Shown: positions 16,393 through 45,677, counted from the first letter of the stretch. The stretch: 64,000 bases of DNA from an uncultured delta proteobacterium (GCA_963760795.1 CAVXEP010000033.1:1-64000), one strand, 5' to 3'. Notes: generated by a model not told the origin, from the sequence alone. Program-made: numbers and translations.

Positions 16393-18741
16393 ATGAGTAA
16401 TACACATACCCCGTCATGTCGATTGCAAACGCTAAGACGCTCAATCGTCACTTTATTGCTTGGTGCTTGCCTTGCGTTGGGGATGCCACCAGAGATCCAC
16501 GCGGCAGCCGCGCCTGCCGTTACTCGCGGGCCTTATTTGCAGATGGGCACGTCAAGCAGCATGGTTGTTCGATGGCGGACAAGCGCGTTAAGTGACAGCA
16601 GGGTGTGTTACGGCTCCGCTCCGGACAATCTGTTTCCGTGTGTCGACGTTGGAAACCAAACTACCGAGCACAGTGTCACCGTCTCGGGGCTCACACCTGA
16701 TACGAGATACTATTATTCCGTCGGTACAACCATAGAGACACTGGCCGGTGGTGATCCCGACCATTTCTTCTTCACCTTACCGGTCCCAGGGACATCCCAG
16801 CAAACGCGTGTCTGGGTCCTCGGTGATTCTGGAACCGCGGACACCAACGCGGAGGCGGTGCGCGACGCCTACCTCGCATTCACGGGCACGCGATACACAG
16901 ACGTTTGGCTGATGCTGGGAGATAACGCGTATCCTATCGGCACCGACGACGATTACCAGGCCGCGGTATTCGAAACGTATCCCACCGTGCTCCGGCAGAC
17001 GGTTCTCTGGCCTTCGTTCGGCAATCATGACGCATACTCGGCCAATGCTCTCACCGAAACCGGTCCTTACTTCGACATCTTTAGCCTTCCCACAAAAGCA
17101 GAAGCCGGAGGGCTCGCGTCCGGGACCGAAGCCTACTATTCATTTGACTACGGCAACATTCATTTTGTCGTGCTCGACTCGTACCAATCGAGTAAATCTC
17201 CCACCGGCCCGATGATGACCTGGCTTAAAAATGACCTAGCGAGTAACAAGCAGCCGTGGACCATCGCCTACTGGCACTACCCTCCCTACTCCAAGCGCGG
17301 CGAGGACTCAGACACGTCGAACCACGACACCGGCATGCGAAAAAACGCGCTGCCTATCCTGGAGGCGGGTGGTGTGGACTTGGTGCTCGCAGGGCACAGT
17401 CATGCGTACGAACGCTCTTTTCTCATGAATGGGCATTACGGCACATCCGACACCTTCACCGAGAGCATGAAGAAGGACGGTGGTGATGGGCGGGTCGATG
17501 GCACCGGGGAGTATCAAAAATCCACGCTCGAACCCAACCCAAACGAGGGAACTGTTTACGTGGTGGCGGGAAGTTCCGGCCAAGTTGGCCACCGTTCTCT
17601 GAACCATCCTGCGATGTTCATCTCGCTCAACGTCTTGGGCTCGATGGTACTGGACGTGAACGGGAGCCGCTTAGACGCTATGTTCCTCGACAGTACCGGA
17701 GTCATAAGGGACTACTTTAGCATCGTGAAGAATGGTGCAGAGGCTTTGCCGACACTGACCATCTCGAGTCCCGATGCGACAGCAACAGAGGCAGGGCCTA
17801 CCACGGGCTCTTTTTTGCTAACGCGTACGGGCAGCACGGCGGCGGCCTTGGCTGTGAATTACACGATCGGCGGCACGGCGACCAAAGGTAGCGACTACCA
17901 GTCACTGCCCCAGAGCGTTACGATTCCATCGGGTTCGAGTACGGTTACCATCATCGTGACACCCATTGATGATTCTATTGGAGAAGGGAATGAAACCGTG
18001 GTGGCAACCCTCGCTGCCGATGCAGCCTACACGATCGGCGCACCCAGTAGTGCTATTGTTACTATTACTGACAACGACCCGACCAACCAGCCACCGAGCG
18101 TAAGTAGTGGTCCCGACCAGACCATCGCATTTCCGGCTGGCACTTCCCTTGACGGGACGGTTAGTGATGACGGCCTTCCAAGTCCGCCGGGCGCGGTGAC
18201 GATCACGTGGAGCAAGATGAGCGGCCCTGGCAGCGTAATGTTTGGCGCCGCGTCCTCCATTGATACCACGGTGAGCTTTACGCAAAGCGGCGCCTATGTC
18301 CTGCGACTGACAGCAAACGACGGGGCGTTTTCCTCCAGCGACGATATAAAAATCACGGTCAATCCCGCGACCAATCCAGACCTGATCATTGCCTCGCTTT
18401 CAATCGCGGCCAAGAAAATAAAGGCGGGCGCAACTACCTCGGTATCAGATACTGTCAAGAACGTTGGGACAGGGTCGGCAGGGACATCGACTATCGGTTT
18501 CTATCTCTCTACTAATAAAGTCTTTGACGCCGCAGATGTTTCTCTGGGCATCAGGGTCGTTCCCTCACTGGCTGCAGCTGAAAAAAACTCAGGTGCTACC
18601 CCGATCTCGATTCCTTCCGGGACAGCGCCAGGAAATTACTATGTGATAGGCGTAGCCGATAGCGGGAGCGATGCCGGAGGCGTCGTGGTAGAAACGAGAG
18701 AAAACAACAACACCGAATTTAAGCCTATAACCGTTAACTAA
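16393..18741 (+). CDS. Secreted purple-acid-phosphatase-like metallophosphoesterase with Calx-beta, PKD/REJ-like and CARDB-like domains
   Basis: Signal peptide; GDSG, GDNAY, GNHD, YWHYPPY, GHSHAYER motifs; C-terminal Ig-like modules. Confidence 0.85.
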   Translation: MSNTHTPSCRLQTLRRSIVTLLLGACLALGMPPEIHAAAAPAVTRGPYLQMGTSSSMVVRWRTSALSDSRVCYGSAPDNLFPCVDVGNQTTEHSVTVSGLTPDTRYYYSVGTTIETLAGGDPDHFFFTLPVPGTSQQTRVWVLGDSGTADTNAEAVRDAYLAFTGTRYTDVWLMLGDNAYPIGTDDDYQAAVFETYPTVLRQTVLWPSFGNHDAYSANALTETGPYFDIFSLPTKAEAGGLASGTEAYYSFDYGNIHFVVLDSYQSSKSPTGPMMTWLKNDLASNKQPWTIAYWHYPPYSKRGEDSDTSNHDTGMRKNALPILEAGGVDLVLAGHSHAYERSFLMNGHYGTSDTFTESMKKDGGDGRVDGTGEYQKSTLEPNPNEGTVYVVAGSSGQVGHRSLNHPAMFISLNVLGSMVLDVNGSRLDAMFLDSTGVIRDYFSIVKNGAEALPTLTISSPDATATEAGPTTGSFLLTRTGSTAAALAVNYTIGGTATKGSDYQSLPQSVTIPSGSSTVTIIVTPIDDSIGEGNETVVATLAADAAYTIGAPSSAIVTITDNDPTNQPPSVSSGPDQTIAFPAGTSLDGTVSDDGLPSPPGAVTITWSKMSGPGSVMFGAASSIDTTVSFTQSGAYVLRLTANDGAFSSSDDIKITVNPATNPDLIIASLSIAAKKIKAGATTSVSDTVKNVGTGSAGTSTIGFYLSTNKVFDAADVSLGIRVVPSLAAAEKNSGATPISIPSGTAPGNYYVIGVADSGSDAGGVVVETRENNNTEFKPITVN

Positions 18742-42342: not shown

Positions 42343-43480
42343 TTAGTTTGCCAGCCCATACAACGCGGCGGCATTTTCGCGCAGCACTTTCTGTTTTACC
42401 TCCGCCGGCAGATGCGCCGAATCCTTTTCGATCACTTCTTTGGAGAACGGCCAGGTGCTGTCCGGGTGCGGATAGTCCGAGCCCCACATGATATGGCCGT
42501 CGCCGAAGAAGTCGACCAGGTGAAGGCCGACCAAGTCGGTTTGATAGGTGGCCCAGACTTGGCGCTTGAAGATTTCGCTCGGCATGTTCTTGAGCGGTAT
42601 CTCGGCGGCCTTGCGGCGCTCGAACTGGCGTTTGTAGCGGTAGTCCATTTCCTGGACGACGAAGGGTATCCAGCCAATGGCCGATTCGGCGAGGCAGAAT
42701 TTTAGTTTGGGATGGCGTTCCAGGGTGCCGAAGTTGAACATGTTGACGAAGGGATTGAAGAACGACGTGGCGCCGTTGCTCAACCCCATGTCGAAAACGC
42801 CCTGACGCTCGCCGGGTTTGATCGAGTCGATGGTCGCGCGCACCGTGCCGGACTGCGTGCTGCCGCCAACGTGATACGACACGACGATGCCGGCGTCCTC
42901 GGCGGCGGCCCAGAAAATATCCCAGGGCTTTAGATTCATTTCCAGAGTGACGTCGTTGACTAAGAAGTTGGCTTCTTTAAAGCCCAGCTTGGCGACGCGG
43001 ATCACTTCGTCGCGCGCCGCCGCGGCGTCGCAGCTGGACAGCATGGCGACGGGGAAAAAGCGCTTCGGTGCAGTCTTGCCAAACTCCGCTGCCCAATCGT
43101 TGTACGCGCGCACGCAGGCATCGCGTAGTTCCGGCGCGCCCACTTGCATGGCGATGATCGGCGGAAACATTAACGACGCCTCGACGCCGTCGCGGTCCAT
43201 GTCAATAAGCCGCTTGGCGGTGGTGGTCGGGCGGTGCGCTTCGCCGACACCACCGCGGTCGAGCGCGAGTCTGGTGCGATTTTCTCTGGCGAACCAGCGT
43301 TCGCCGCGGTAATCGGCCCAGGTCTCACCATCGCACACCCAGTATTCGCCTTTATCGCCGCGGTCTTCGACATGGGGCGCGCGCTCGCGCAAGGCGGCAG
43401 GGCAAGCGTTCGGTCCATAAATCGCGCGGCAAATATCCTAAATCGATATGATCGTCGGCGGAAATCATCATGTAAGTCAT
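42343..43480 (-). CDS. Amidohydrolase family protein (frameshift near 43400)
   Basis: MTYMMISADDHID start; DMDRDGV, SYHVG, AESAIGW, WGSDYPH. Confidence 0.85.
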
Positions 43481-43883
43481 ATTAATCTCCTCTTGGTTTT
43501 CGCGGGTTCGGTCTTTTTTCGAATCGCGCTGATTCTTACGCCAAGGTTGGCCCGTGTCAAGCTGTACCCGCGCTGATTACGCGGAGCAACGGGGACTCTG
43601 CGTCTCGGTGCGCGCTGGATAGCGCGAAACCCGCAAGCGCCGCAGCGGGCTGCTGTCATCGCGTGAATTCGCAAGCGCGGCTTGCGCTTTTGCTCTGCGG
43701 CATTGACAGCAACGATCATTTGACGCAGCCGGGTGAAGTCTTTCTTCGACCTAAATTGAGCGGCGACGCTGCCGGTTGCGAGGGTGATTTTTTCGTGCGA
43801 GGCCGGCGGGAAATATCGCAGCGCCCAAGGGTCTTAACCCCGACTTCACGATGATAGAGGAATTCACATTTTGGCAGCAAGAG

Positions 43884-43981
43884 TGTCGGTGAATTCCTGA
43901 CAAAAAGGGCGGCGCCCAAAACCCTGAACTGCGAAAACCGTCACTAAATCAAAGACTACAAAACTTGGTATCCCACTTGCA
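43884..43981 (+). promoter_or_regulatory. sigma-54 promoter with upstream palindromic activator site
   Basis: TGGTAT-CCCAC-TTGCA at 43966-43981; TGTC-N11-GACA dyad at 43884-43902. Confidence 0.6.
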
Positions 43982-43996
43982 TTTTAAATCATATAG

Positions 43997-44417
43997 AAGC
44001 CTGGAGGGTCAAATTAGGCATGGAGGAAAATCGCCGTAATAATAAAAGGAGGAAAATTTATGTACATAAAAAGTCTTAGTTTGGTTTTTGGTCTGGCGAT
44101 TTCATTGTTAACGCCAAATGCGTTTGCCCTGGATCGCACCGGGCGCGAGTCGATCGAAACCTTCGATCCGTCGGCTCTGCCTGACCGATCCATCGTCATT
44201 CTTAAAACCGAAGAAAGCGATGCCCCCGGCTACATGCACACAAAATTCGCATTGGTTGATCATCGCTGCGGCGCGGTACTCGTTGACCATTACGGCCCGC
44301 CGGTTAAGGAAAACGACAAGGAGTTGAAGGAAGCAGAGCAGCGGATGTGCACGCAAATCGCGACTAACTCTCGCGATGGCGAATAGCGATAGAGTTCGAA
44401 CCTGGCCCTCCAGGCTT
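43997..44417 (+). repeat. 15-bp inverted repeat pair enclosing the 44060 ORF
   Basis: AAGCCTGGAGGGTCA (43997-44011) and TGGCCCTCCAGGCTT (44403-44417); the one mismatch is a G-U pair in the sense RNA. Confidence 0.8.
44060..44386 (+). CDS. Small secreted hypothetical protein (108 aa)
   Basis: AAGGAGG RBS; Sec signal ending AFA; two cysteines. Confidence 0.8.
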   Translation: MYIKSLSLVFGLAISLLTPNAFALDRTGRESIETFDPSALPDRSIVILKTEESDAPGYMHTKFALVDHRCGAVLVDHYGPPVKENDKELKEAEQRMCTQIATNSRDGE

Positions 44418-44537
44418 GGTTTTTAATCAAATATCGCGGGAAATAATTTCACTCGGAAAAGACGCGGATCTCCGATAATTTTACGGCGTGGGGGCGCGGT
44501 GGCCAGCGCAGATAACTCTGTTGGGTTACCGGTGCGA

Positions 44538-45677
44538 TTATGAACTCACCTCGAAGCCGTACAGCCTTGCCGTGTTTTGACAAAGAATTTTTTCTTGGTC
44601 TGCCGCGCTGACAGCATGAAAATCTGCGGCGATTTTTTCCCGCGACTTGGGCCAGAAGGTCGCACTGTGGGGAAAGTCGGAGGACCAGAGAATGTTTTCC
44701 ACGCCGATTTTTTCGCGCAGGGCGATGCCGAAGGTGTCGTCGATGAAGGTGGCGTAGAGCTGGCGGCGGAAATAATCGCTCGGCTTGAGCGTCAGCTTGG
44801 TGGCGAAGGGCGTGCCGCGGAAACGGATGCCGCGGTGATCGAAGCGCTCGTCGATGCGGTGCAGAAAAAAAGGCAGCCAGCCGCAATTCAACTCCGCCGA
44901 AACTACCTTGAGCGCGGGAAAGCGCTCGAGCACGCCGGATATGATCAACGTCGAAAAGGTTTGCTCAACTTCATGAGAATTGATCGCTTGGGCAATGGTA
45001 CGCTTCTTCGAGTTGGAGTCCCAGTCGACCCACTTGAAGCCGGCGAACTCATGGAGGCTGAGCGGCATCTTGAGTTCCTGCGCCGCTGCCCAAAACGGGT
45101 CGTAGCAGTCCGAGTGAAACGGCAGCTCCTCCGGCGGCGAGGCCCAAATCACCGCGCCGGCGAGCCCTTTTTTTGCACACTCGGCCAAGTCCTTGGCGGC
45201 TTGCTGCGGATCGTAGAGTGAGATCAGCGCCAGCCCTTTCAAGCGTTTGGGCGAGTGGGCGCAAAACTCGGCCAACCAATCGTTGTAGACCTGAAAGCAA
45301 GCGCGCTGAAAGCCCGCGTCCTTGATCCAAAACATGCGAAAACCAAGCGTCGTGTAGAGGACGTCGCCGGTGACGCCGTCCTGGTCCATGTCCTGCAAGC
45401 GCTGCGCCGGGTCCCAGCCGCCGCGATGGGCGCCGGCATAGGAGAAGCCTTCCAGCAGTTTTTGCAGTTCTTCCGTCGACTTGTTGGCGCCGAAACCCAA
45501 GATCACGTTGTGTGGCTGGCGATCTGGTTCGATATGCCACCAGGCGCCGGGCTGGCCCTGATATTTTGTCTCCATGTGCGGCGCGATGGCGCGATACTTT
45601 TGCGGCAGCCGTTCCTGCCATAAATTCAACGGTTCGCTGACATGGGAATCGGCATCGAGCAAAATAGTGTCCGCCAT
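44538..45677 (-). CDS. Amidohydrolase family protein
   Basis: LDADSHVSEP, DMDQDGV, LSLHE, AELNCGW, WSSDFPH. Confidence 0.9.
   Translation of the reverse strand: MADTILLDADSHVSEPLNLWQERLPQKYRAIAPHMETKYQGQPGAWWHIEPDRQPHNVILGFGANKSTEELQKLLEGFSYAGAHRGGWDPAQRLQDMDQDGVTGDVLYTTLGFRMFWIKDAGFQRACFQVYNDWLAEFCAHSPKRLKGLALISLYDPQQAAKDLAECAKKGLAGAVIWASPPEELPFHSDCYDPFWAAAQELKMPLSLHEFAGFKWVDWDSNSKKRTIAQAINSHEVEQTFSTLIISGVLERFPALKVVSAELNCGWLPFFLHRIDERFDHRGIRFRGTPFATKLTLKPSDYFRRQLYATFIDDTFGIALREKIGVENILWSSDFPHSATFWPKSREKIAADFHAVSAADQEKILCQNTARLYGFEVSS

Follow-up and report, generated by a model that had tools for sequence, protein, structure and literature searches.

Pairing between the two untranslated regions (UTRs), 5′ and 3′, of one and the same messenger RNA is known for a handful of bacterial mRNAs, namely RNAIII/hld, icaR and hbs, according to the account given in PMC7821165. 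In Bacillus subtilis hbs, a 14-bp 5′/3′-UTR interaction is described as restraining cleavage of the leader by RNase Y and slowing decay from the 3′ end (Braun, Durand and Condon, 2017; PMC5737220), and conservation even among close relatives is stated to be lacking for functional 3′ UTRs like the hbs one (PMC7821165). In Staphylococcus aureus icaR, the 3′-UTR motif UCCCCUG is reported to pair with the Shine–Dalgarno (SD) sequence, thereby blocking initiation and creating a substrate for RNase III (Ruiz de los Mozos et al., 2013; PMC3868564). Anti-SD-like sequences are also reported to exert repression from a distance, and genes to be depleted of them (Gill et al., 2025, preprint; PMC12697547). 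A literature search for further cases of intramolecular 5′/3′-UTR pairing found nothing relevant. Here, we describe a small gene within a 64,000-nt stretch of DNA from an uncultured delta proteobacterium (the window; its genome, G000, is 6.58 Mb), whose coding sequence for a 108-aa protein is flanked by two complementary arms predicted to join the ends of the mRNA. Judged from sequence comparison, this pairing is probably an unusually conserved cis-acting mRNA element that would act on stability or translation of the message.

The features on which this proposal depends are as follows (coordinates are those of the window).

43884..43902, plus strand: dyad TGTCGG-N7-CTGACA (TGTC-N11-GACA; TGT-N13-ACA) seen in the sequence, a candidate enhancer-binding-protein site
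43966..43981, plus strand: sigma-54 type −24/−12 promoter TGGTAT-N5-TTGCA, with GG at 43967-8 and GC at 43979-80
43997..44011, plus strand: 5′ arm of the long-range helix, AAGCCTGGAGGGTCA, recognized by folding, inverted-repeat listing and conservation in relatives
44048-44052, plus strand: functional SD GGAGG, inside a 26-nt insertion
44060..44386, plus strand: coding sequence (CDS) of the 108-aa protein of an orphan family, with a signal-peptide-like N-terminus and conserved cysteines C70 and C97
44403..44417, plus strand: 3′ arm of the long-range helix, TGGCCCTCCAGGCTT, 16 nt past the stop codon ending at 44386

The two arms match at 14/15 positions, and the remaining one is U-G in the sense RNA. 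The 5′ core CCUGGAGGG (44000-44008) resembles an SD sequence and the 3′ core CCCUCCAGG (44406-44414) resembles an anti-SD sequence; the 3′ arm is followed by GG and then by TTTTT at 44420-44424. The end of the dyad lies 63 nt upstream of the −24 element. The dyad, the −24/−12 element, both arms, an upstream open reading frame (ORF) and the 108-aa ORF had been named in the original prediction, which was made from the window sequence, and each of them is present where it was placed. That prediction had proposed fold-back of the mRNA ends and folding with RNAfold as a check. Region 43990-44430 is indeed closed by exactly the 15-bp stem in both the minimum free energy (MFE) and the centroid structures, with a z-score of −2.95, and 0/100 shuffles fold as well.

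Related loci retain the pairing. Genome and metagenome collections provided forty loci and whole-genome searches provided more, and a second contig scan with distant family members yielded no additional loci; the arm statistics refer to the 30 loci in which both flanks are available. An exact 5′ core CCTGGAGGG occurs in 21/30 loci, a core with one or two changes in 8/30 and a degenerate one in L035; for the 3′ core CCCTCCAGG, 20/30 are exact, 9/30 have one or two changes and that of L025 is degenerate. The distance from the 5′ core to the start codon is 32–47 nt in relatives and 60 nt in the window, and that from the stop codon to the 3′ core is 14–39 nt in loci with an intact reading frame. 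As calculated with RNAduplex, pairing extends from the cores outward and inward to 21–40 pairs in all 30 loci. Outward extensions include GGAAC-AAC with GUUG-GUUCC (L003), GGAGC with GCUCC (L007) and GGGGCAAU with GUUGCCCU (clade D), and an example of inward extension is AUUCGAA with UUGAAU, right behind the stop codon. The RNAalifold consensus of the full-length alignment A2 retains the long-range stem. At least 7/9 core pairs are present in the MFE structures of 24/30 transcripts, with a pair probability of at least 0.8 in most; L008 and L013 have 6/9 core pairs, and the shortfalls of L010 and L035 are contig-end indexing artefacts.

Several lines of evidence point to pairing at the level of RNA. 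For a defined 18-pair helix, 87.0% of cells are paired, versus 83.5% in shuffles (0/500 reach the observed value) and 41–59% when the partner is slid. The covariation score of this helix is 0.220, versus 0.176 in shuffles (0/500 as high), and changes on both sides have occurred at 7 of its pairs. Compensated variants are GGAGAG/CUCUCC in L012, for which L008 and L013 provide G-U intermediates, CGAC/GUCG in place of CAAC/GUUG in clades H and I, and GGCCGA/UCGGCC in L048; the window, L018 and L046 have AG-CC with GG-CU. In L050 (genus g9), the SD-like core is lost and wholly different arms, GGCGGUGACCCC/GGGGUCCCGCC, pair at the equivalent places in an 11-bp helix, the 3′ arm of which is common to L059. 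Cognate arms pair with −33.6 kcal/mol, versus −29.7 kcal/mol for foreign-clade arms (permutation over 10 clade representatives, p = 0.016). The single U-G wobble of the window had been taken as favouring RNA pairing over a DNA repeat; this one position is weak evidence alone, and the same point is made better by the family-wide ratio of 54 G-U cells to 21 A-C cells, which favours the sense RNA. The proposed fold-back has thus stood up to comparison with homologous loci: the flanking stem is present rather than missing there, it occurs in the MFE structures of most transcripts, and it has changed on both sides.

Some results weigh against this interpretation. A 15-nt inverted repeat by itself is at about chance level: the 64-kb window has 2 distinct sites where arms of this length with at least 14 Watson–Crick matches stand 300–500 nt apart. 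An RNAduplex energy of −34.3 kcal/mol or lower is reached by 393/4000 random genome segment pairs of the same spacing, the window duplex lying at the 9.8th percentile among random genome pairs. As the window repeat alone is within chance, its significance depends only on conservation in homologous loci. There, covariation is limited to few positions and lineages because most of the helix core is invariant, and the shuffle controls overstate significance because the sequences are related. In clade G, the advantage of cognate over foreign arms is often absent. Stability favours the sense over the antisense duplex in only 20/30 loci (mean −2.1 kcal/mol), and this asymmetry is reversed in the group of L003, L011 and L014. 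None of the core pairs is found in the MFE structures of L009 and L025, the helix thus being absent from that of L009, and a degenerate arm stands next to an intact ORF in L025 and L035. Also, a terminator scan downstream of the 3′ arm found no terminator-like site in 3/3 relatives (L039, L026 and L003); inspection by eye of L039 and L040 reveals CACCGCC...GGCGGTG with a long loop and a T-run. The second inverted repeat of the window pairs 16807-16821 with 17302-17316 (15 nt, 14 Watson–Crick matches, ~480 nt between the arms).

The location of the helix relative to predicted promoters suggests that the repeat tracks the transcript rather than the promoter. Sigma-54-dependent promoters are of the type TGGCAC-N5-TTGCW with GG-N10-GC, which TGGTAT-N5-TTGCA at 43966-43981 represents here. 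In established sigma-54 geometry, the start is taken 12 nt past the C of GC, which in the window puts the inferred transcription start near 43992. The sigma-54 type element that had been predicted is kept, with an invariant GG-N10-GC, in 22/38 loci with an identified start, and G000 encodes rpoN and ~26 enhancer-binding proteins (strong Sigma54_activat matches), none of which is on contig C33. The TGTC-N11-GACA dyad likewise recurs: as TGT-N13-ACA, it is found at the equivalent place in 10/22 sigma-54-type loci, and its left half TGTCAGTGAGTT alone is found in 9 more. In sigma-54 loci, the 5′ core lies 19–27 nt past GC in 18 loci and 44–46 nt past it in L036 and L037, and the helix begins ~1–6 nt from the predicted start; when the start is placed 12 nt past the C of GC, the outer helix sets in ~3–6 nt into the transcript. 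In place of the sigma-54 element, a TTGACA-N16-18-TAnnnT match is seen in clade I and L049, with the core 11–16 nt past the −10 element, such that the helix is again at the predicted 5′ end. In clade G, 8/8 loci are without a nearby sigma-54 match; the 5′ arm adjoins the end of an upstream ORF on the same strand, into which the complementarity continues.

In the proposed mechanism, the first nucleotides of the 5′ UTR (CCUGGAGGG) would pair with the 3′-UTR segment (CCCUCCAGG) that starts 14–39 nt past the stop codon, and the resulting helix would close the SD, the start codon and the entire CDS into a loop of ~400 nt. This pairing would bury the 5′ end, limiting attack that needs a free 5′ end, as in hbs, and would keep the anti-SD-like 3′ element off the true SD. 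G000 encodes RNase J, RNase E/G and RNase III (rnc). In full-length folds of 14/30 loci, pairing of the true SD with the 3′ core has P = 0.00 in 14/14, and the upstream decoy is the partner instead. When the 5′ arm is removed in silico from these 14 loci, mean SD accessibility falls from 0.41 to 0.17, and the 3′ core captures the true SD in 7/14 loci, though not in the window. These models also allow a possible but doubtful elaboration, in which the 5′ SD-like decoy, the true SD and the anti-SD-like 3′ element would form a three-part toggle, or ‘closed loop’, tying translation to the integrity of the 5′ end. With an intact 5′ end, the decoy would hold the 3′ element, leaving the SD free and the stop codon near the start codon, which could favour re-initiation; with a processed or occupied 5′ end, the freed 3′ element would capture the SD and silence the message.

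Of the described systems, hbs shares with this locus a pairing of ~14 bp inside one short mRNA that carries a single gene and a very strong SD. A complementarity of this length is found here, with 15 bp in the window and 21–40 predicted pairs in the 30 loci, and RNase J is encoded in G000. Unlike hbs, with which there is no sequence or gene homology, the 5′ strand here is SD-like and lies at the extreme 5′ end, and with 20–40 bp the helix is longer in most loci. Also, the pairing is kept across at least six genera, whereas the hbs 3′ UTR is described as not conserved in close relatives (PMC7821165). In icaR and here alike, the 3′ UTR has a C-rich motif of anti-SD type, UCCCCUG in icaR and CCCUCC in the present locus, that pairs with a segment of the 5′ UTR containing GGAGG; however, the target in icaR is the functional SD, whereas here it is an upstream SD-like decoy. 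A pyrimidine-rich anti-SD-like element that can pair with GGAGG from hundreds of nucleotides away is likewise dealt with by Gill et al. (PMC12697547). As that preprint describes such sequences as depleted from genes, a conserved one with a dedicated partner is notable.

Conservation of the pairing across at least six genera, three promoter arrangements and replaced arm sequences suggests that enclosure of a whole CDS by an RNA helix can be under long-term selection in bacteria. The unit is compact (~450 nt) and movable to a laboratory host, where effects of end-to-end pairing on 5′-end-dependent decay, SD accessibility and re-initiation could be tested. It would be a new RNA element absent from Rfam, the covariance models of which give 0 matches to 43300-44700 at E-values up to 1, and it draws attention to an orphan family of small proteins with a signal-peptide-like N-terminus, which occurs in uncultured soil bacteria and is represented in RNA libraries from the rhizosphere. 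Partial likenesses exist to two other kinds of system. The STAB-SD of cryIIIA is reportedly an SD-like 5′ stabilizer that is not used for initiation; the SD-like site near the 5′ end is similar, but STAB-SD is without a 3′ partner. In the processing stalks of rRNA operons, flanking inverted repeats enclose the whole RNA product, as the arms do here, but those stalks are longer and flank non-coding RNA.

Further features of the window are the following.

44015-44043, plus strand: sigma-70-like match TAGGCA-17-AATAAT from the promoter scan, within the window-specific leader
44020..44079, plus strand: 19-aa upstream ORF (uORF) from the ORF listing and the leaders of relatives, confined to the window and not among the conserved parts of the element
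44034..44059, plus strand: 26-nt lineage-specific insertion with a second GGAGGAAAAT copy, recognized as 10-mer direct repeat D9, in alignment A2 and by comparison with L046 of the same genus
44401..44424, plus strand: weak local hairpin CCTGG-CCCT-CCAGG followed by CTTGGTTTTT, terminator-like, in the window only

No other locus, same-genus genomes included, has this 26-nt duplicate of the SD region. At the uORF start (44020), relatives read AUUCGAAAGGAGG. In 36 leaders compared by script, only that of the window has an ATG in the interval from the 5′ core to the SD; in L049, L050 and L056–L058, inspected by eye, no ATG is seen there. The uORF is specific to the window and results from the lineage-specific second SD copy. 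The overlapping 19-aa ORF, which had been taken as part of a regulatory switch, therefore has no place in the conserved element, as it is absent from the other 35 leaders. In RNAalifold columns 77–80 and 127–130 of alignment A2, AGGA of the true SD pairs with UCCU in the early coding region in 22–25/30 loci; this pairing (in the window, ~44047-44050 with signal-peptide codons) may be a local SD-masking hairpin.

Other explanations of the paired mRNA ends have to be weighed against a cis-acting element. An RNase III processing stem, in which the 5′/3′ duplex would be cut to mature or destroy the mRNA, as with rRNA stalks and icaR, or, in clade G, to excise it from a longer transcript, is unlikely. 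The 5′/3′ pairing of icaR is reported to create a substrate for this enzyme (PMC3868564). Duplexes of 21–40 bp are predicted in all 30 loci here, rnc is encoded, and in clade G the lack of nearby sigma-54 matches and the complementarity extending into the upstream ORF fit such excision; however, the helices are broken by bulges. Their continuous part is 9–15 bp in many loci, the window included, which is short for RNase III. It is very unlikely that two independently selected elements, a 5′ standby or STAB-SD-like site and a 3′ terminator or protective stem, are complementary by accident. This would account for invariant cores that are precisely SD-like and anti-SD-like and for the ability of each arm to form a local hairpin also (CCTGG-CCCT-CCAGG in the 3′ arm of the window), but not for complementarity that reaches beyond GGAGG/CCUCC into clade-variable flanks that stay paired, nor for L050, where the 11-bp helix is kept with the SD-like core gone; moreover, the U-tract after the 3′ arm is not conserved. 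The model of the original prediction, a module similar to hok/mok or aapA in which fold-back and an overlapping leader ORF would gate a toxic product, appears extremely improbable. As in hok/mok/sok and aapA, there is pairing between the two mRNA ends, and the window uORF does overlap the start; however, a uORF in 1/36 leaders that stems from a 26-nt insertion is no conserved leader ORF. A hok-type toxin is a small hydrophobic membrane protein of ~50 aa, whereas the product here is 108 aa long, has an N-terminus resembling a signal peptide, and is conserved as a folded domain with three strands and one helix. The analogy is therefore abandoned, and the accompanying remark that the exported protein is not Hok-like agrees with this folded domain. 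Evidence for an antisense promoter or an antisense RNA was not found; the promoter scan lists two minus-strand sigma-70-like matches between the 5′ arm and the terminator-like site.

The arms could also act as DNA, as the ends of a mobile cassette or miniature inverted-repeat transposable element (MITE), as recombinase inversion sites or as paired operator sites. The 13–14 bp core is almost invariant, as a protein recognition site would be, the strand energy asymmetry is weak, the neighbouring genes differ by clade, and the distribution is patchy (12/90 genomes of the bacterial family, 6/23 genera). Nevertheless, a DNA-level role is distinctly unlikely. The motif pair occurs once in the 6.58-Mb G000, which excludes a MITE, and its 9-mers are present in 15 and 12 copies, versus ~46 expected per strand. 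The order and orientation of promoter, 5′ arm, SD and CDS are identical in 38/38 loci with both flanks. Target-site duplications are not seen in the flanks inspected, and a scan of 32 neighbouring ORFs gave no recombinase; the MITE that the original prediction had offered as its alternative is thus not borne out, the element being single-copy per genome. The same-genus locus L051 carries a decayed copy in syntenic position, and the arms do not mark the ends of its deletions. The repeat goes no further than the predicted transcription start, the G-U to A-C ratio of 54 to 21 favours the sense RNA, and in L050 complementarity is kept with a different sequence.

RNA evidence bearing on the proposed element comes from assembled contigs of the four small rhizosphere metatranscriptomes, all of one study, in which the stretch is best represented, and such contigs cannot define transcript ends. 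The contigs (99% alike) extend from 44051-44053, inside the SD, to 44438-44439, or to 44477 in one run (X2); in one contig, adapter follows directly after 44438. RNA libraries thus contain the 3′ arm, and their contigs pass through the T-run. Their coverage goes beyond 44403, ahead of which a transcript end would have spoken against the pairing. The GGTTTTT tail, to which the original prediction had also drawn attention, is specific to the window and not conserved, and, with a 5-bp stem and T5 that RNA contigs pass through to 44438-44477, the site does not qualify as an intrinsic terminator. In the four runs, no contig lies over 43700-44050 and hence none over the 5′ arm. Possible reasons for this gap are a 5′ end that is processed and held at the ribosome-bound SD, a sigma-70-like start in the window or an assembly break at a strain polymorphism. 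The sigma-70-like match at 44015-44043 would start transcription near 44050, where the contigs of the four runs begin.

The small gene is a stand-alone single-gene unit of an orphan protein family within one family of Binatia-like soil bacteria. Twelve homologues were found in databases, eleven of 108–109 aa and one a 69-aa fragment, and the two cysteines (C70 and C97) and several motifs are conserved among them. The N-terminus is read as a signal peptide by us from the sequence and not by a prediction tool, and is thus termed signal-peptide-like. In the AlphaFold model, the core of three strands and one helix has a predicted local distance difference test (pLDDT) score of ~85; the N-terminal 32 residues, which score below 50, bring the mean pLDDT down to 68.6. 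Searches of Pfam, NCBIfam and ESM Atlas with the 108-aa protein gave nothing significant, a PDB sequence search gave no match below E 0.67, and Foldseek against PDB gave no significant fold match (best E-value 0.08). The protein family occurs in 8/401 genomes sampled from the class, all 8 inside one bacterial family, and within that family in 12/90 genomes and 6/23 genera, G000 counted. No paper on this gene was among the titles listed in a literature search on Binatia and sigma-54.

Neighbouring genes are clade-specific and include Amidohydro_2, LOG-like, NMT1 with Fer2_2/MoCoBD, SLT and amine oxidases; this variety, with no transposition signature seen, fits a free-standing unit. In the window, both flanking genes (42343-43392 and 44538-45677, minus strand) encode Amidohydro_2 proteins and are opposite to the small gene, an arrangement that recurs in L009. 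The remnant in L051, at the same place as L006, likewise lies between two Amidohydro_2 genes, and its promoter, 5′ arm and 3′ arm are deleted. In the NCBI/ENA homologue P0005, on a 67-kb contig, both ends match the window protein, whereas residues ~30–65 match an ORF in another frame (window 44118-44327), which suggests that a close relative carries a compensating pair of frameshifts or assembly indels. In the independent assemblies L005, L032 and L047, a common deletion has removed the SD, the start codon and the signal peptide, and the sigma-54 promoter and both arms are kept.

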